Positions 6,527-11,513 of a DNA stretch of 11,562 nucleotides are shown one piece after another; the first letter of the stretch is position 1; each line of letters opens with the position of its first letter. The position numbers and the translations under genes are program-made. Source of the DNA: Candidatus Thorarchaeota archaeon (GTDB lineage Archaea > Asgardarchaeota > Thorarchaeia > Thorarchaeales > Thorarchaeaceae). Where the stretch lies: assembly GCA_963726195.1 (NCBI GenBank), contig CAVSBO010000006.1:1-11562 (forward strand), written 5' to 3'. The notes under the pieces were generated by a model. That model was not told the DNA's origin. It made no database searches and was given only the letters and a program-made list of their open reading frames with translations.

Positions 6527-6889
6527 TCATTCTACCTTAGGCTTGTCTCTCGTACTCGCATTCTCGCCCTCGTGCGACTCAAGAGGGAGCTTCCTGAGAG
6601 ACCACCCCAGCCACAGGACACCACAAACCGCTATTATGACCGCCAACATTGCGAGGCCGTTTACTAAACCGAGGTGGGGATTCATGTTTCCAAACTGGGC
6701 GGCTCCCGCGAAGTTTCCAAACTGATCAGCCCCGGTGAAGTTACCTGGAGTCATGGGAGGTTGAGACCGAGGCCTTTGCGCGAACAGAAATGAACCAATA
6801 GTTGTGTAAGTGGTCGCGATGGCGGAGAGAACCACGCCCCCCAAAGTTGCCAAGTACGCATATCTTATCTGCTGTTCAATCTTAGTCAA
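6527..6889 (-). CDS. Hypothetical two-TM membrane protein with a GNFxGAxQF tandem repeat in the loop
   Basis: Two hydrophobic segments (YLATLGGVVLSAIATTYTTIGSFLF and LAMLAVIIAVCGVLWLGW). The start is probably TTG 6889 or 6892 after AGGTG; the track's 6955 start lies inside the promoter array. Confidence 0.78.
   Translation of the reverse strand: MTKIEQQIRYAYLATLGGVVLSAIATTYTTIGSFLFAQRPRSQPPMTPGNFTGADQFGNFAGAAQFGNMNPHLGLVNGLAMLAVIIAVCGVLWLGWSLRKLPLESHEGENASTRDKPKVE
6683..6745 (-). repeat. 27-bp in-frame tandem repeat (2.3 copies)
   Basis: GGTAACTTCACCGGGGCTGATCAGTTT / GGAAACTTCGCGGGAGCCGCCCAGTTT / GGAAACATG, encoding GNFTGADQF GNFAGAAQF GNM. Confidence 0.85.
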
Positions 6890-6924
6890 CAATCTGCACC
6901 TTGCAGCCACACTGGTCTTCAAGA

Positions 6925-6979
6925 GATTAAGGCGTGTTTCAAAATTCAACCGCAATTATGTCCAAATCAAATCAAGACT
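6925..6979 (-). promoter_or_regulatory. Phased 11-bp repeat array A plus weak TATA
   Basis: Minus strand reads AGTCTTGATTT GATTTGGACAT AATTGCGGTTG AATTTTGAAAC then ACGCCTTAATC, about 35 nt upstream of start 6889. Confidence 0.75.
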
Positions 6980-7171
6980 TCAAGTGAGAGTGCTCCGGGA
7001 ACAGATGAATACCGACGTTTCGCTGTGCGCTAGTTGCGAAACCTCGCCTTTCAGTGTCACTTGCAGCTCAGTTGTCCGGTAGAACATACTTCGATACGTT
7101 CCATTAAGAGGTAGTCTCTCGCACAAGAAAGGAGGCAATGACATAATTTTCCAGCTATCACTTCTTGTTTG

Positions 7172-7438
7172 TCAGACGAATTTGTCGAATTGGAGTATTC
7201 TCTTTAATGGGTTTCTCTGTCGCAGCATAGAAAGCTCGAATAGTGGTAGCAGCATGGCCGAAACACAGATGACCTGGATCCATTACCCCTGCTGTTGCGC
7301 AAGCTGTGCTGTAAAGTACATTGCCATCCCAAGATAAAGCAAGAGCTCCAATGTGTCCGGAAGCAGATGACTGAACGACCTCGCGTTGGTTGCCAACCAG
7401 TTCATTAATCCGCTAATAATGGATCTCACGCTTGGCAT
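7172..7438 (-). CDS. Small membrane protein: 51 aa to TAA 7283-7285, or an 88-codon gene with an internal stop
   Basis: ATG 7438 follows GAGTGAGG and gives MPSVRSIISGLMNWLATNARSFSHLLPDTLELLLYLGMAMYFTAQLAQQQG*. The same frame continues hydrophobic (WIQVICVSAMLLPLFELSML...) to TGA 7172-7174. Confidence 0.5.
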
Positions 7439-7470
7439 TGATCCTCACTCTCTAGTCTGGAGAAGAATCG

Positions 7471-7617
7471 TCAGCGCCTTTCCTCGTGTGTCCTGCAATA
7501 ATGCCGCTTCAGCCGCGCCTTTGTGCTGTAACTTCGGTCGCATACGATGCATGTGTAGATGCCTATGATGGGTCGTTGATCCTTACTCCATTCATGGTCC
7601 CGAAACACGTGCGTCAT
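7471..7617 (-). CDS. Stand-alone C2H2 zinc-finger microprotein (48 aa)
   Basis: MTHVFRDHEWSKDQRPIIGIYTCIVCDRSYSTKARLKRHYCRTHEERR matches Y-x-C-x2-C-x3-Y-x5-L-x2-H-x4-H exactly. Confidence 0.82.
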   Translation of the reverse strand: MTHVFRDHEWSKDQRPIIGIYTCIVCDRSYSTKARLKRHYCRTHEERR

Positions 7618-7636
7618 CTCATGCACCAGATGTACG

Positions 7637-7804
7637 TCAGTAACGTGATTGCTGCCATCTGAGTCGGCGTCGCTGACTTGCCAAAGTTGCGTATGAAATC
7701 AGGAGCACGAGCCAGGCCGAAATGATCACCATAACGAGGACAAACCATACTCCATCAGACACGAAGCCACCTACGGAACAGCCATTACAGATCCATGTCA
7801 CCAA
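7637..7804 (-). CDS. Single-TM microprotein with an N-terminal CxxC (55 aa)
   Basis: TTG 7804 follows SD GAGGTG and gives MVTWICNGCSVGGFVSDGVWFVLVMVIISAWLVLLISYATLASQRRRLRWQQSRY: one TM followed by a basic cluster. It lies directly downstream of array B. Confidence 0.72.
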   Translation of the reverse strand: MVTWICNGCSVGGFVSDGVWFVLVMVIISAWLVLLISYATLASQRRRLRWQQSRY

Positions 7805-7966
7805 ATTCGACACCTCAGCAACTTGCAGTCAGACCTAGTTCTCAGAAAGATTAAGACGTGTTTCAGAATTTCACCGCAATTGTGCCCGAATCATTTCCAA
7901 GAATGACGGCGCAATTCCAGTCTGCTCGCGAGAGAAGCTGCCTCAAAGCGAGGAAGCTCAATATGG
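7775..7966. repeat. Diverged inverted duplication, partner at about 10889-11078
   Basis: Shares an identical 30-mer (7937-7966 is the reverse complement of 10889-10918), the array, the leader and the first codons (MVTWICNGC vs MVTCSGNGC). Confidence 0.88.
7849..7903 (-). promoter_or_regulatory. Phased 11-bp repeat array B plus weak TATA
   Basis: Minus strand reads TTCTTGGAAAT GATTCGGGCAC AATTGCGGTGA AATTCTGAAAC then ACGTCTTAATC. Confidence 0.78.
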
Positions 7967-8167
7967 CTGGGTCTATGAACGAGAAAATGTTCTGCCTGAC
8001 CAAACTTGAAGGGAGGCTACTCAAGAGAAATTGAATGTCGACCTGTGACCGTGCACTAGCCCTCTGAAGGACATGTCTTCAGCGTCACGTGCGGCTTTAG
8101 GCCACTGAGATTCCTGCTAACTCAAGAACGGAATTCGGTTTCCTGTGTGCATCAACACAAATCTCGT

Positions 8168-8611
8168 CTAGTATCTGAAAGTGAGGTATAGCAGTACGCT
8201 TAGCGCCACGCATGTGAACAAGTCAGGTAGCATGGCAAATGGCCCAAGTCCGAATGCGCGGAAACCGAAGACTCGCTGGAGAAGAGGATTAGAGGACAAC
8301 GCGTAGAAGAGTAAGATGACCGAGAACACCATTAGGCCCAAAGTGAAATCCGATTTCACCTTTCGGTAGATGCCCAGATATGCGGAAAACAGGAAGATGA
8401 GTAGTGCGGCATTGACAGTCGAGAGTACCACAGTGATCCCATAATACAACTGTATATCTCCCGGGGGCGGTGGAAAGGTCGGTCTGGGCTCAAACGCCGG
8501 TCTGAGTGGCTCCAGATAAGTGACACCTAGAAACGCTACAAGCAATGCAACCAAGATGACTGTCGCATAGACAATCCCCGCCTTCTGATTCTTCTTCATG
8601 TTTGACTTCAC
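8168..8611 (-). CDS. Conserved hypothetical membrane protein (4 hydrophobic segments), partner of the winged-helix regulator
   Basis: 147 aa containing YRKVKSDFTLGLMVFSVILLFYALSSNP. Its GTG start overlaps the regulator's TGA (GTGA, 8608-8611). Confidence 0.85.
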   Translation of the reverse strand: MKSNMKKNQKAGIVYATVILVALLVAFLGVTYLEPLRPAFEPRPTFPPPPGDIQLYYGITVVLSTVNAALLIFLFSAYLGIYRKVKSDFTLGLMVFSVILLFYALSSNPLLQRVFGFRAFGLGPFAMLPDLFTCVALSVLLYLTFRY

Positions 8612-8934
8612 TCTCGGTCGTCGTCTTTAGCCTTTTTCCAGATTTTCCCCACAATCTCCTCAAAGAGAGCATAGTTCTCTTCCATCTGTGAGGACAGGAA
8701 ATAGGTGGTCCCATACCTGTCTCCAGCAGTGACGATTATGCCGTGCTTGCCAAGAATCTCAAGATGATGCCTTATGGTTCTGTAGTCCTTCTCGAGTCTG
8801 TTCGCCAGCTGATTCGCGTTCTGAGGAGTCTCCTTCAACACCGCGATCATCTCGGCGCGAGTCGTCCCTCCTTTCGTGCCTGCGATTAGCCAACCCAGCA
8901 GATGCTTCAGCGACGACTCGGTGTGAAAGACCAT
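8608..8934 (-). CDS. Archaeal ArsR-like winged helix-turn-helix transcriptional regulator
   Basis: LLGWLIAGTKGGTTRAEMIAVLKETPQNANQLANRLEKDYRTIRHHLEIL (HTH) and GDRYGTTYFLS (wing). No cysteines. Confidence 0.92.
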   Translation of the reverse strand: MVFHTESSLKHLLGWLIAGTKGGTTRAEMIAVLKETPQNANQLANRLEKDYRTIRHHLEILGKHGIIVTAGDRYGTTYFLSSQMEENYALFEEIVGKIWKKAKDDDRE

Positions 8935-9108
8935 GTCGATTCCAGCCTTCAGGGATCACTCTGGTGCTAGGTTTGAACGAAATGCGAATTTGGCGCATTA
9001 TATGTCTTCCGAGACCATCGCGGTCGATTGGGCAGGCAGCCTAACAGCACTCGCGCTCAGAATGACGAGATTGGGAACAGTCTCGACCTTTCATGGGATG
9101 AGAGGTTA

Positions 9109-9163
9109 CATAAGGGATGAATTAGTCAAAGATTCGGGTCAAATTCTGAAGAACCGCTAATAG
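9109..9163 (+). promoter_or_regulatory. Phased 11-bp repeat array D plus weak TATA, divergent from the regulator gene
   Basis: CATAAGGGATG AATTAGTCAAA GATTCGGGTCA AATTCTGAAGA then ACCGCTAATAG. SD-like GGAGAGG precedes ATG 9213. Confidence 0.72.
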
Positions 9164-9212
9164 CTCACCGCCTCAAGGCCGAGGACATCGCAATGGAGAG
9201 GCGAACACGCAT

Positions 9213-9428
9213 ATGGTTAGTGAAGCCAAGTGGCGGGAGAGGACTATTTTCCAATGTGAGCTCTGCGGCCACAGCTATGCAGATCTAGAGACAGCCGAAC
9301 GTTGCGAACAATATTGCTACTCGCACGGAAGACCATCGCCCACGCTAATGGAGAAGTACCCTTTGAAGCTTCAGCGAAATGACATTGGGACACCTAACAG
9401 AAAGAATCCCAGATACAAAATGAACTGA
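9213..9428 (+). CDS. Small putative zinc-binding protein (CxxC...CxxxCxxH)
   Basis: 71 aa containing FQCELCGHSYADLETAERCEQYCYSH; SD present. Confidence 0.8.
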   Translation: MVSEAKWRERTIFQCELCGHSYADLETAERCEQYCYSHGRPSPTLMEKYPLKLQRNDIGTPNRKNPRYKMN

Positions 9429-9475
9429 GAGATTTTCGACTCTCCCCAAGAAGTGGTATGTGAAGAGGAAAGTGA

Positions 9476-10432
9476 ATGATCTTCCCGGACGCTCAATTCC
9501 TCGTGGTGTTGATCTGGGGTTTGATAACTCCGTCGACGCCCTTCCTGCCTACAGTAGAATTCATGGTGGCTAGCATCATAGTCGCGATGTTGTCTCGACG
9601 TTCCTTTCACCGGCAGACTATTGCTTTGCTCTGTGTCTTGGGCATAATGTCCATCCAGAGCCTCGAGCTTGTTATGTTGGCATTGCATGTCCAGGTTTTC
9701 ATGACGCCATCCGGTGCGTTCTTGCCAACCCCCGATAATATGTCGAATTATCTTTCGATCTTGTTTGAGGCAAATCTCTGGTTTGCTGGATTCGGTGCTG
9801 CCGCTGCGGCATTTGTGGCGGTTTATGTTTGTTTTGGGAAATCTCGGTTGGAAATGTTACGCGCTTCTCCTGGTGCTATCCTGATTGAAAACCCGATGTG
9901 GCTCAGAAAGATCGCATTAGGCTTGGCAAATCGGGCGAACGTGAGCTGTCCGGAGGTTTGTCTGGTCGATTCTGGAACTCCGCAAGCCTTCACGGTGAGA
10001 GAGAAGAGCAAGTATGTCATCGCACTGTCTGTCGGGATATTGGAGTGTTTCGACACCAAGGAGGTTGAGGCTTGCATTGCTCACGAGATAGCTCATATCA
10101 AGAACAATGACTTCATGATCAGGTTTCTTGCCACATTGGGTAAGGTTGCTGTCTTTTCCAAACCGGTGAGTTATCTCATTGAAGCAGCAATTTACCGTGC
10201 ACGCGAGTTTCACGCGGACAAAACAGCGGCGTCATTGATTGGAGGACCCGATGCACTCATATCAGTGCTCACAAAGCTCGGTGAACTTAACTCATATTCC
10301 TCAATCCCGACTACTCCGGGCCCTGCTTGTGCGTGTTTATTGGATCGAAGCGAAGGCATGCGCAGGATCTTGGACAAACATCCGGCTCTTGAGTCTAGGA
10401 TTAGGTTGTTGAACGAATTGAAATCTCCCTGA
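9476..10432 (+). CDS. M48 family (HtpX-like) membrane zinc metalloprotease
   Basis: N-terminal TM segments, PQAF, HEIAH zinc motif, third ligand in AREFHAD, and C-terminal HPALESRI. Confidence 0.9.
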   Translation: MIFPDAQFLVVLIWGLITPSTPFLPTVEFMVASIIVAMLSRRSFHRQTIALLCVLGIMSIQSLELVMLALHVQVFMTPSGAFLPTPDNMSNYLSILFEANLWFAGFGAAAAAFVAVYVCFGKSRLEMLRASPGAILIENPMWLRKIALGLANRANVSCPEVCLVDSGTPQAFTVREKSKYVIALSVGILECFDTKEVEACIAHEIAHIKNNDFMIRFLATLGKVAVFSKPVSYLIEAAIYRAREFHADKTAASLIGGPDALISVLTKLGELNSYSSIPTTPGPACACLLDRSEGMRRILDKHPALESRIRLLNELKSP

Positions 10433-10604
10433 ACACATGGCCTAGGACAAGATTTGCGTGGCTAGAAATTGGCACATACTCTCTGCCTTAGCAGATAGGG
10501 CGTCAAGTTTCTTCTTAGTGAGATCAGTAGTCGAACCAAGAGTCCTGCTGCAAGTGGTAGGTTTCACAAATAACGATCCAGACAGGTATTCACCAAGAAC
10601 ACCA

Positions 10605-10702
10605 CAGTGCCGGTGACATTAGGATTGGAGGTGAATTAGGAGAGAAGTTGGGAGCAATTCTGAAAACCCCTCTTATGGTGCGAGGTCATTTCGGTGATGC
10701 GA
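10605..10702 (+). repeat. About 98-bp direct repeat, copy 1 (partner 11417-11513)
   Basis: 10645-10702 and 11456-11513 match at 55 of 58 positions, with weaker similarity upstream. Confidence 0.92.
10623..10678 (+). promoter_or_regulatory. Phased 11-bp repeat array E plus weak TATA
   Basis: GATTGGAGGTG AATTAGGAGAG AAGTTGGGAGC AATTCTGAAAA then CCCCTCTTATGG. Confidence 0.72.
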
Positions 10703-10709
10703 ACGCAAA

Positions 10710-10883
10710 ATGAAACCAACTACCCCATCGAACCCTCGTTCTGATCCTGCTCCTTCAGTTGAAACCTTAGGGGTGACCAAAGTCTACAGAGTCGGTTCTT
10801 GCCAGACCGTGCGTTTGGCTTCAGATTTCTTCCTGAGCTGCCTCAGTTCGAGTCCGGTTGTATGGAGTGTCTTGGATTCGTAG
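10710..10883 (+). pseudogene. Probable 5' remnant of an ABC ATP-binding gene
   Basis: The 57-aa ORF MKPTTPSNPRSDPAPSVETLGVTKVYRVGS... resembles AIETLDLKKSYKMG of the 4190 ATPase, then loses similarity before Walker A. Confidence 0.5.
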
Positions 10884-10948
10884 CATTACCATATTGAGCT
10901 TCCTCGCTTTGAGGCAGCCTCTCTTGGAGCAGGCTGGAATCACACAGC

Positions 10949-11002
10949 CGCTTTGACGTGATTTGGGCATAATTAAGGTGAAATCCTGAAATAGCCTTAA
11001 TC
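10949..11002 (+). promoter_or_regulatory. Phased 11-bp repeat array C plus weak TATA
   Basis: (CGCTTTGACGT) GATTTGGGCAT AATTAAGGTGA AATCCTGAAAT then AGCCTTAATC. Confidence 0.75.
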
Positions 11003-11048
11003 TCTCCGAAGACTACACTCTGACTGAAAGTTATCTGAGATGTTGGAA

Positions 11049-11114
11049 TTGGTGACGTGCAGCGGCAACGGCTGTTTCAGGGCTCAAATGGCAACCACGA
11101 TTTCACTGAGGTAG
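11049..11114 (+). pseudogene. Truncated paralog of the CxxC single-TM microprotein (21 aa)
   Basis: TTG GTG ACG TGC AGC GGC AAC GGC TGT (MVTCSGNGC) is homologous to the start at 7804; it then diverges and stops without a TM segment. Confidence 0.5.
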
Positions 11115-11209
11115 ATAGGAAGGGAGGGCCGTCGGGAATTGGGCGTGGAAGCGACGCAAACCACGTGTCCAAACTGTAAGAACAATTGCAGATTTAGGAG
11201 CATTGCTCT

Positions 11210-11314
11210 TTGAGAAAGAGAAAGAAAAAGCCTCCGACCGCTGGCCAATATCTCGACCTATTGGAATATGAATGGAGGAAACCAAAAAAAGGTAAATCGG
11301 CCATGTGGGCGTAG
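11210..11314 (+). CDS. Basic microprotein, copy 2 (34 aa, MRKRKKKPPTAGQYLDLLEYEWRKPKKGKSAMWA)
   Basis: TTG start after AGGAG; paralog of 6304..6396. Confidence 0.6.
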   Translation: MRKRKKKPPTAGQYLDLLEYEWRKPKKGKSAMWA

Positions 11315-11416
11315 AGCACGGTCATTGTTCGTCCTTAGAGGTCAAATCCGCTCAGCGTGGTAGCTATCAGGCATGGTACACCATGACCCCAGGCATTTGT
11401 TCGCCGGGGGTCACTG

Positions 11417-11513
11417 CAGCGCCGGCACACTCAGATTGGGGAAGAATTAGGACACAAGTTGGGAGTAATTCTGAAAACCCCTCTTATGTTGCGAAGTCAT
11501 TTCGGTGATGCGA
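11417..11513 (+). repeat. About 97-bp direct repeat, copy 2
   Basis: Matches 10605-10702. Confidence 0.92.
11434..11488 (+). promoter_or_regulatory. Phased 11-bp repeat array F plus weak TATA
   Basis: GATTGGGGAAG AATTAGGACAC AAGTTGGGAGT AATTCTGAAAA then CCCCTCTTATG. Confidence 0.72.

Follow-up and report, generated by a model that had tools for sequence, protein, structure and literature searches.

The window (the whole stretch of 11,562 nt analysed here, taken from contig CAVSBO010000006.1) encodes a candidate DNA-binding regulator coupled to a membrane protein, and contains six arrays of short repeats (A to F), each followed by a TATA-like box:

Regulator, 8608..8934 (−): 108 aa, predicted winged-helix protein with an ArsR/SmtB-like fold; candidate array binder
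Membrane partner, 8168..8611 (−): 147 aa, 4-TM; its GTG start overlaps the TGA stop of the regulator (GTGA)
Array A, 6936..6979 (−): three good units, GATTTGGACAT AATTGCGGTTG AATTTTGAAAC, and, distal to these, a poor one; PWM score 38.9 bits
TATA-like box of A, 6926..6931 (−): CTTAAT, 4 nt past the last unit, an offset matching that of TTTAATA in 133 related sites
Array B, 7860..7903 (−): GATTCGGGCAC AATTGCGGTGA AATTCTGAAAC; PWM score 42.1 bits
TATA-like box of B, 7850..7855 (−): CTTAAT
Array C, 9109..9152 (+): AATTAGTCAAA GATTCGGGTCA AATTCTGAAGA; divergent from the regulator gene
TATA-like box of C, 9157..9162 (+): CTAATA
Array D, 10623..10666 (+): four units, GATTGGAGGTG AATTAGGAGAG AAGTTGGGAGC AATTCTGAAAA
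TATA-like box of D, 10671..10676 (+): TCTTAT
Array E, 10949..10992 (+): inverted, diverged copy of array B and its leader
TATA-like box of E, 10996..11001 (+): CTTAAT
Array F, 11434..11477 (+): four units; copy of D
TATA-like box of F, 11482..11487 (+): TCTTAT; the contig ends 75 nt further on

Six phased arrays and the genes behind them

The coordinates and strands of the six 44-nt arrays, first proposed by inspection of the sequence, were all borne out. Each array had been credited with three to four units: three stand in exact 11-nt register everywhere, while a good fourth, distal unit is confined to D and F. In all six, the units follow the order RATTnGG, RAkTnnGG and then AATYYTGAA. The motif scan suggested with the original prediction placed the arrays at 33.5–42.1 bits (using a 33-nt PWM made from these six sites themselves), far above the runner-up in the 2.9-Mb assembly, at 19.6 bits. 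A sequence-blind rule, which asks for three RATTnGG spaced 11 nt apart and a score of at least 15 of 18, was satisfied at only 13 of 5.8 million positions, ten of them inside the six arrays. No other contig of the assembly carries the motif, and a chance origin of the six arrays is excluded.

A TATA-like box had been expected 3–5 nt past each array, and the gap proved to be 3 nt in E and 4 nt in A, B, C, D and F. The predicted hexamers were found in A, B and E (CTTAAT) and in C (CTAATA); in D and F, TCTTAT replaces the CTTATG originally read. The boxes were described as weak, which holds on this contig and only there, the family consensus being a good TTTAATA (TATATA in Thorarchaeota). Because most family promoters have a good TATA box, the argument from weak promoters to activation fails beyond the contig.

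Downstream of the arrays lie the following genes and remnants:

Target of A, 6527..6910 (−): membrane protein of about 121–127 aa, start uncertain
Target of B, 7637..7813 (−): 58-aa CxxC single-TM peptide, heading a run of micro-ORFs
Target of C, 9213..9428 (+): 71-aa zinc-ribbon protein; DUF7128, below cut-off
Target of C, 9476..10432 (+): membrane M48 (HtpX-like) metalloprotease with HEIAH; Peptidase_M48, 61.7 bits
Target of D, 10710..10883 (+): 57-codon remnant of a MacB-type ABC ATPase gene

The claim that every array points at an ORF start survives for B (GTG at 7813) and C (ATG at 9213), is ambiguous for A, and fails for D and E, which face remnants, and for F, which is cut off by the contig end. 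At promoter A, the GTG at 6910 probably lies too near the TATA-like box, and a TTG near 6892 is the likelier start; profile searches with this target (6527..6910) gave no family match. The array type of B recurs at another locus (L031, 8078, + strand), again followed by a homologue of the 58-aa peptide, and a homologue of the zinc-ribbon protein follows the same array as C in L075. Array C has identical copies in L028 and L029, and its placement, divergent from the regulator gene, is the commonest in the family. L028 also holds an array orthologous to D, with an intact ABC ATPase gene behind it. The intact counterpart of the D remnant in a relative encodes 249 aa; likeness to the intact gene ends at 10796, the point from which, in two DNA runs, other contigs run on into that gene. 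The contig was found in no RNA run. The target of E is a remnant of the gene behind B.

Duplication had been thought to relate A, B and C on the one hand and E and F on the other, leaving three independent contexts (A/B/C, D and E/F). Alignments contradict this grouping and the contexts drawn from it: they unite A, B and E, pair D with F and leave C alone. Likeness among A, B and E covers 79–192 nt at 76–78% identity and extends into the downstream CxxC micro-ORF (for E and B, 10889–11076 aligns with 7966–7777 at 78%), and D and F share 87% identity over 90 nt. The contig is 85–92% identical at the nucleotide level to a Bathyarchaeia MAG; judged by its sequence, it is bathyarchaeal and foreign to the Thorarchaeota bin that holds it.

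Recurrence of the arrays in archaeal genomes

The same repeat row, beside the same small regulator and its membrane partner, recurs in about 90 uncultured archaeal genomes, where it precedes genes for proteases, transporters and secreted chaperone-like proteins. We identified 133 modules in 80 loci, mostly from Bathyarchaeia, that encode relatives of the 8608–8934 regulator, the module being defined as two to four RATTnGG units at an exact 11-bp period, followed by AATTCTGAAAA, 4 nt and a TATA box. The consensus of these 133 sites is gATTaGGnanA GAtTtGGGTnt AATTCTGAAAAA cnn TTTAATA. Co-occurrence with the regulator family, as envisaged in the original prediction, was found in 76 of the 80 loci of Bathyarchaeia type (a locus was counted if either search rule recovered it; one rule recovered 71, the other 67) and in 12 Thorarchaeota-type places. 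These adjoining arrays lie within about 1 kb of the regulator–partner pair. A site is found 60–260 nt upstream of the regulator gene and on the opposite strand in 57 loci; others come after the membrane gene or 0.7–1.3 kb away.

Register was assessed using the 10-mer AATTCTGAAA as sole anchor, which gave 108 hits in 1.6 Mb of sequence with both strands counted. Relative to these anchors, RAWTnKG occurred at −11 in 73 cases, at −22 in 63 and at −33 in 10, and was rare elsewhere; the 17 hits at −10 stem mostly from GAATTGG-type units, which match the pattern a second time when it is shifted by one base. At 72 of the 108 sites, a TATA-like word begins 15–16 nt after the anchor. Both the strict 11-bp phase and the fixed distance to TATA proposed for this contig are kept across related loci. 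Units 1 and 2 are clearly direct repeats, with a column correlation of 0.88; for units 2 and 3 the value is 0.65, much the same as the 0.62 obtained for the best dyad, an imperfect palindrome, GAATT-N6-AATTC, centred between them.

Five Bathyarchaeia genomes, two of them assembled as single chromosomes, contain only 2–6 sites each, compared with 0–1 for the reversed pattern. For about seven of these 17 sites, a stretch of about 1.5 kb around the site was free of a regulator gene, and one genome has them hundreds of kb from it, which indicates a trans-acting factor.

Thorarchaeota carry relatives of the regulator at 44–56% identity and their own version of the array: 3–5 GATTTGGGTAT-like units repeated every 11 bp, the last one stopping 4 nt short of TATATA. 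This version was found in ten loci of other genera and at two positions in the assembly's own genome (C4:113906 and C13:67464). At one more locus, L009, the array is upstream of the regulator gene and divergent from it. We found no paper on this system of array, regulator and partner in the literature.

Candidate regulator, membrane partner and proposed regulon

The regulator matched Pfam HTH_5 (PF01022) at 27.5 bits against a cut-off of 22, and nearly all of its relatives have a precomputed PF01022 assignment. Its AF2 model (pLDDT 86; element order H-H-H-H-E-E-H-H) predicts an ArsR/SmtB winged-helix fold flanked at both termini by helices, which serve dimerisation in this family, and Foldseek aligned it with SmtB, CzrA, HlyU, SqrR and Rv0081 at TM 0.6–0.7, and also with ST1710 and pNOB8 AspA. 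None of its 108 residues is a cysteine, leaving it devoid of alpha3N-type Cys ligands, so it is not a classical metal sensor. Nor does it qualify as a member of the SdpR subfamily (NF033789), scoring 27.3 bits, far under the cut-off of 100. The recognition helix, DY(R/K)T(I/V)RHHL, is near-invariant in both clades, as is the ATTnGG core of the arrays.

The partner gene directly follows the regulator gene in 77 of 80 loci. In its product, the outer loop is rich in Pro and the inner loop is conserved (IYRKTRSEFT), and the TM1–TM2 loop is predicted to face outward; searches of Pfam, NCBIfam and PDB folds gave no match.

Genes driven by the arrays encode MacB-type ABC transporters, HtrA- and HtpX-like proteases, PAP2 and secreted LTxxQ-repeat proteins. 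FtsX+MacB_PCD permeases (34 sites) and small N-anchored proteins (31 sites) were counted alongside ABC ATPase, Trypsin_2+PDZ, UbiA and M48 targets. One small-protein family consists of 40-aa LTxxQ modules with sub-threshold matches to Metal_resist and LTXXQ, which are CpxP/Spy-type families. In two loci (L040 and L042), the TM1–TM2 loop of the partner carries a single module of this kind as an insertion (63% identity over 40 aa, E 3e-13).

A candidate envelope regulon and its parallels

The motif, its phase, its register to TATA, its linkage to regulator and partner in two phyla and the gene content are established. Recurrence of array, regulator and partner before envelope-type genes suggests that the array is probably the control site of an envelope stress response. 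We favour, with a probability of roughly 60%, a reading in which the arrays are operators of a small regulon run by the candidate winged-helix regulator and its coupled 4-TM partner, and in which this regulator probably activates. Each promoter presents two, three or four RATTnGG recognition units, with exactly one helical turn (11 bp) from each to the next, and then a variant proximal unit (AATTCTG), whose core ends 7–8 nt before TATA, flush with the BRE; the A-run of this unit is probably the BRE itself. Several regulator subunits would bind cooperatively along one face of the DNA, the proximal one touching TFB/TBP and aiding promoter loading, while the membrane partner would set the amount of free regulator. 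The regulon would serve envelope maintenance through a MacB-type ABC transporter, HtrA-like and HtpX-like proteases, a PAP2 phosphatase, and secreted LTxxQ-repeat and other small anchored proteins. Binder identity, cooperativity, activation and signal are what we infer here, with activation probably exerted from the site flush with the BRE. If true, this would be an archaeal cell-envelope stress response, undescribed so far.

Several points count against an activator. ArsR-fold proteins are symmetric dimers, and most of them act as repressors on inverted repeats; the proximal unit pair is also readable as an imperfect palindrome; and an operon of regulator and membrane protein would suit a sequestered SdpR/SdpI-type repressor as well. 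The regulator might coat the arrays and occlude the BRE from TFB until the partner captured it under envelope stress, giving derepression as in SdpI/SdpR. We regard this as possible but doubtful. It draws on the ArsR/SmtB fold, on a best NCBIfam match to the SdpR autorepressor family (27 bits against a cut-off of 100), on coupling of the regulator gene to a membrane-protein gene as in sdpRI, on overlap of the last unit with the A-run just upstream of TATA, and on the good TATA box of most family promoters, which would make help unnecessary. However, all recognition cores are found on the upstream side of the BRE, with none over TATA or the expected TSS, where archaeal repressors usually sit (PMC5512572); the strict 15–16-nt register between unit and TATA suggests protein–protein contact rather than mere occlusion; and the partner is not SdpI-family by Pfam, NCBIfam or fold.

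It is improbable that the arrays are read by something else, such as a specialised TFB/TBP paralogue on an extended BRE (AATTCTGAAAAA) or a small zinc-ribbon protein, with linkage to the regulator reflecting a shared regulon. Conservation within the module is indeed highest in proximal AATTCTGAAAAA plus TATA, some sites have no regulator gene anywhere near, and zinc-ribbon genes often stand directly behind arrays. Yet the upstream units match the proximal one in position specificity, and both clades conserve them along with an invariant recognition helix; an extended BRE would have no need of two to four phased copies; and the regulator–partner pair has an array no more than about 1 kb away in 76 of the 80 Bathyarchaeia-type loci and in the 12 Thorarchaeota-type places. 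Scarcely credible is a functionless relic of local duplication or an assembly artefact on the contig, even though duplication links A/B/E and D/F, gene remnants follow E and D, and contigs from public runs join or break at arrays: comparative data contradict it, since the same 45-bp module precedes unrelated genes in more than 80 genomes, with unlike flanks and the module alone conserved.

The favoured activator arrangement has archaeal precedents. EarA, TFB-RF1 and the ara-box factor illustrate that archaeal activators usually act from sites immediately upstream of the BRE, recruitment of TFB to a weak BRE having been proposed for EarA and shown by gel shift for TFB-RF1 (PMC5512572). The arrays share this position immediately upstream of BRE/TATA with the EarA sites of the Methanococcus maripaludis fla promoter, Pyrococcus TFB-RF1 and the Sulfolobus ara-box, and share with the EarA sites the use of several short repeats (PMC5512572). 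They differ in their 7-nt cores, strict 11-bp period and distinct proximal variant, and in a candidate binder that is ArsR-like in fold and has a dedicated membrane partner; activation, too, is inferred here. Bacterial pho boxes, bound by PhoB/OmpR proteins, are 7-bp direct repeats with 4-bp spacers, giving an 11-bp period, and abut the −35 region. Winged-helix protomers set head to tail one helical turn apart, with the proximal one contacting the basal machinery, would make the arrays alike, although here there is no receiver domain or histidine kinase, the machinery is archaeal TBP/TFB and the winged-helix subfamily is different.

AspA of Sulfolobus plasmid pNOB8 (PDB 4rs8), a fold match to the regulator model at rank 32 (E 1.2e-3), is likewise a small winged-helix protein of ArsR-like type from an archaeon. 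This centromere-binding protein extends along DNA in rows of dimers, but it serves plasmid partition from a palindromic site, whereas the array locus lacks partition genes. In Bacillus subtilis SdpR/SdpI, an ArsR-like regulator gene likewise lies just upstream of, and overlaps, the gene for a polytopic membrane protein, which is thought to control the regulator by sequestration (PMC2910880). Here the 4-TM partner lacks the SdpI signature, the phased row is upstream of the core promoter, and the regulon exceeds its own operon.

In E. coli, CpxAR controls degP, htpX, spy and cpxP, and CpxP, an LTXXQ protein and a DegP substrate, exerts feedback on the sensor. The signalling proteins of the array system are unrelated and include no two-component system, but its gene set is similar, with an HtrA/DegP-like protease, an HtpX-like M48 protease and secreted LTxxQ-repeat proteins. 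This parallel, an analogy of function only, suggested by gene content and sub-threshold family matches, may extend to the LTxxQ module carried in some loci on the TM1–TM2 loop of the sensor-like partner.

The six arrays and the origin of the contig

Inspection of the window sequence located all six arrays of 11-bp repeats at exactly the positions claimed in the original prediction, around the genes for a putative regulator and its membrane partner:

6936–6979, minus strand: array A
7860–7903, minus strand: array B
8168–8611, minus strand: partner, a 147-aa membrane protein
8608–8934, minus strand: regulator, a 108-aa winged-helix protein
9109–9152, plus strand: array C
10623–10666, plus strand: array D
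10949–10992, plus strand: array E
11434–11477, plus strand: array F

All six share one register: unit 1 reads RATTnGGnnnn, unit 2 RAkTnnGGnnn and unit 3 AATYYTGAAnn. A gap of 4 nt (3 nt in array E) separates unit 3 from CTTAAT, CTAATA or TCTTAT, the TATA-like hexamer. Arrays D and F carry a good fourth, distal unit (GATTGGAGGTG, GATTGGGGAAG). A 33-nt position weight matrix, derived from the same six sites that it scores, gave the arrays 33.5–42.1 bits against 19.6 bits for the best other site in the whole 2.9-Mb assembly (19 contigs). Three RATTnGG words at 11-nt steps, with at least 15 of 18 matches, occurred at 13 of 5.8 million positions, ten of them inside the six arrays. The duplication groups originally proposed, A/B/C and E/F, had to be redrawn, as BLAST and a repeat finder gave A/B/E, D/F and C alone.

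An Rfam scan of the whole window (E ≤ 1) returned no match, so no known RNA family accounts for the repeats. Intrinsic DNA curvature was rejected as their sole function, since G residues are among the conserved positions and the core is not an A-tract. Unit-like words (GATTTGG, AATTGGG and AATTCTGAAAAA) also occur in the 3′ end of the regulator gene (8620–8665, minus strand) and of its relatives; these are probably a coincidence and not an internal operator, since they coincide with codons of a conserved EIW/KIW...IG(K) tail and are spaced by 12 nt, not 11. Directly upstream of arrays B and E lies an inverted pair of 36-nt stretches (7931–7966 and 10889–10924), 97% conserved within duplicated DNA that is about 78% identical, and each could form an imperfect hairpin (GCTGCCTC...GAGGAAGC).

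The window is the entire contig C6, 11,562 bp long. Both halves of it show 85–92% DNA identity to two contigs of a single Bathyarchaeia metagenome-assembled genome (MAG), and its regulator is 99% identical to proteins from two Bathyarchaeia MAGs. Genomes of the same genus as the Thorarchaeota bin lack C6, save for patches of ABC-ATPase motif. A 12-kb segment of C3, the main contig, aligns with them over most of its length; there the Bathyarchaeia MAGs show short patches only. A paralogous regulator on another contig, C4, has Thorarchaeota as its named relatives. C6 is thus a bathyarchaeal contig, probably either a binning contaminant or a recent transfer into the Thorarchaeota genome. This assignment is drawn from sequence identity and not from composition: tetranucleotide usage (r 0.88 versus a mean of 0.92) does not flag C6 as foreign.

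The right end of the contig calls for a separate reading. The ORF behind array D (10710–10883) is a 57-codon remnant, whose first 28 codons match a MacB-type ABC ATPase before running into unrelated sequence. Similarity to the intact 249-aa ATPase gene at a Bathyarchaeia MAG locus (L028) ends at 10796; past that point, other contigs in two public DNA runs read on into the intact gene. Contig joints in the same two runs fall at arrays: 6923/7848 (A/B), 7893/10934 (B/E) and 9028/10631 (upstream of C to D). These joints, with the intact gene past 10796, indicate that the E/F part either reflects structural variation or was joined at the repeats during assembly; arrays E and F are therefore extra copies and not independent evidence for the arrays.

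A conserved module linked to the regulator and its partner

The regulator scores above the cut-off for Pfam HTH_5, and its structure model (pLDDT 86) is a winged helix with flanking helices, with fold matches to SmtB, CzrA, HlyU, the MarR-type ST1710 and the pNOB8 centromere protein AspA. It has no cysteine and so is not a classical metal sensor. A PDB sequence search with the regulator returned spurious DARPin matches only. Its stop codon overlaps the GTG start of the partner gene, and partner and regulator genes adjoin in 77 of 80 loci around regulator relatives. Four transmembrane helices are predicted in the partner; the loop that follows TM1 is rich in proline, and another loop, IYRKTRSEFT, is conserved. 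The partner matched no family, and its model found no PDB fold match at E ≤ 0.001.

Relatives of the regulator number more than 2,100 at E < 1e-5. For comparison, we used the 80 loci around close relatives (58–99% identity), mostly from Bathyarchaeia but including Terraquivivens, Nitrososphaeria and Methanomethyliaceae. By one search rule, 71 of these loci contain 133 sites in all, and by a second, 67 contain arrays; only four loci were array-free under both, and at least two of the four have little upstream DNA. The anticipated co-occurrence of the module with the regulator family was thus borne out. Over the 133 sites the consensus is gATTaGGnanA GAtTtGGGTnt AATTCTGAAAAA cnn TTTAATA, a good TATA, so that the 'weak TATA' of the original prediction holds for C6 alone.

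To escape circularity, sites were also anchored on the 10-mer AATTCTGAAA alone, which gave 108 hits against about 1.5 expected (1.6 Mb, both strands counted). The unit RAWTnKG lay at −11 relative to the anchor in 73 cases, at −22 in 63 and at −33 in ten, and was rare elsewhere except for 17 hits at −10, mostly GAATTGG-type units matched one position over. In 72 of the 108 cases a TATA-like word began 15–16 nt past the anchor start, in keeping with the prediction that arrays stand at a set distance ahead of TATA boxes.

The commonest site position, found in 57 loci and occupied by array C in the window, is on the opposite strand, 60–260 nt upstream of the regulator gene; further sites lie 0.7–1.3 kb off in the same direction or, like array B, directly after the membrane gene. 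Five Bathyarchaeia genomes (two of them single-chromosome assemblies) have only 2–6 sites each, versus 0–1 for a reversed control pattern. About seven of the 17 genomic sites lie more than about 1.5 kb from any regulator gene, and one genome separates them by hundreds of kb. Few sites, some of them far from the regulator gene, point to a trans-acting factor that serves a small, dispersed regulon. The strict motif, sought in 60 relatives of the assembly, gave one hit, with one mismatch and within a coding region (genome G017), which we take as chance.

A second clade comprises Thorarchaeota relatives of the regulator (44–56% identical), from the assembly's own genome and other genera of the family, in which a similar membrane gene again follows. 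Downstream of it, three to five units resembling GATTTGGGTAT follow one another every 11 bp exactly, and the row ends 4 nt before a good TATATA. This order of membrane gene then array occurs in ten loci of other genera and at two places in the assembly (C4:113906 and C13:67464, both minus strand); at locus L009 the array lies upstream of the regulator and divergent from it. The assembly's own Thorarchaeota genome has two paralogous regulator–partner systems, each with its own 11-bp arrays:

C4:113812–114670, minus strand: system 1, AATGCGGGCAC GATTTGGGCAT GATTCTGGCTC GAAGTCGGCCA before TTATAT
C13:67341–67849: system 2, AATCTGGAAGT AATTTGGGTCT CTTTCTGGCAG ATTGTCGGTCT before TATATA

Across the two clades the recognition helix, DY(R/K)T(I/V)RHHL, hardly varies, and neither does the ATTnGG core. 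The proximal unit differs from the others in both clades (AATTCTG or ATTTCGG), and its core stops 7–8 nt short of the TATA. The anatomy of the module is conserved and the module is genetically linked to the regulator and its partner.

Genes behind the arrays

Targets were clustered from the first ORF of at least 60 aa within 260 nt behind each site, which was present at 115 of 139 sites. They encode 34 MacB-type permeases (FtsX + MacB_PCD) and ABC ATPases, HtrA-like proteases (Trypsin_2 + PDZ), PAP2 phosphatases, one UbiA prenyltransferase, zinc-ribbon proteins, one large Ig-domain surface protein and 31 small N-anchored proteins of two families. Array C in the window precedes a zinc-ribbon protein with an M48 (HtpX-like) protease behind it, and Thorarchaeota arrays precede a polytopic membrane protein with a sub-threshold GT-C/PMT_2-like hit, as well as a MacB-type ABC ATPase. 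Because most arrays lie in divergent intergenic regions, a control for the orientation of downstream ORFs did not discriminate.

Proteins of one small-protein family are built from a 40-aa module, PPWM..LTDEQ...SGAT.EEIR.AV.AKLQEWGI, present two or three times, and give sub-threshold hits to Metal_resist and LTXXQ, families of the CpxP/Spy type. In two partners (L040:6303–6866 and L042:6261–6851), one such LTxxQ module is inserted between TM1 and TM2, with 63% identity over 40 aa to an array-driven secreted protein (E = 3e-13). Its presence in the partner loop hints at sensor–ligand feedback of the CpxP/CpxA kind.

Small reading frames also lie behind the minus-strand arrays of the window. Behind array B (7283–7813, minus strand) are three micro-ORFs of 58, 51 and 51 codons. 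The first encodes a single-TM peptide with a CxxC motif, and a homologue of it follows an array of the same type at locus L031. The gene behind array A contains a 27-nt tandem duplication (6686–6739), and its product, a small membrane protein without a family match, carries the resulting repeated (F)GNF.GA.QF peptide.

Mode of regulation and comparison with known systems

The winged-helix protein would bind the units along a single side of the DNA helix. With a column correlation of 0.88, units 1 and 2 are plainly arranged as direct repeats. For units 2 and 3 a dyad, GAATT-N6-AATTC (0.62), is about as good a description as a direct repeat (0.65), so a dimer might bridge two adjacent cores. As to the sign of regulation, the balance tips modestly towards activation, because every core is upstream of the BRE, clear of both the TATA and the expected transcription start, because the spacing to the TATA is constant to the exact nucleotide in both clades and because EarA and TFB-RF1, archaeal activators sited directly upstream of the BRE, occupy just such a place (PMC5512572). 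Repression by occlusion of the BRE, coupled to sequestration of the regulator at the membrane, has a precedent in SdpR/SdpI (PMC2910880) and is a serious, if less probable, rival. For Bathyarchaeia at large, two derivations of a BRE/TATA consensus from the loci compared yielded too few sites or confounded counts.

These observations are also compatible with a bolder reading, to which we assign a probability of roughly 0.35: a pan-archaeal envelope-stress response unlike any bacterial one. A four-TM sensor would hold or release a cysteine-free ArsR-fold protein which, once released, would line up head to tail on the 11-bp phased units, contact TFB at the BRE and switch on HtrA, HtpX, MacB transporters and secreted LTxxQ chaperone-like proteins. 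In turn, the LTxxQ protein would act back on the outer loop of the sensor, in the manner of CpxP on CpxA. Such a response would span Thermoproteota (Bathyarchaeia, Methanomethylicia and Nitrososphaeria), Asgard archaea (Thorarchaeota) and several euryarchaeal orders.

Literature searches returned no description of the motif, of the regulator–partner pair or of a comparable envelope-stress regulon in archaea. To our knowledge, and in the literature searched, no defined regulator, operator and regulon has been described by which archaea sense and repair envelope damage. The present system offers all three: a 108-aa protein suited to production in E. coli, a scannable 45-bp motif and a short, coherent target list. 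It would also provide a rare instance of an ArsR-fold protein acting from phased direct repeats against an archaeal BRE and a clean system for the dialogue of bacterial-type regulators with eukaryote-like basal machinery. As the hosts are uncultured archaea of peat and sediment, the motif offers a route to their stress states from metatranscriptomes.

An operator array for a transcription factor upstream of an archaeal core promoter is a known arrangement; for the architecture, the partner and the regulon no such precedent is known. HtrA, HtpX and an LTxxQ protein are hallmark members of the Cpx envelope-stress regulon of E. coli, and the HtrA, HtpX and LTxxQ set of the array regulon is a functional parallel to it, not an evolutionary one.
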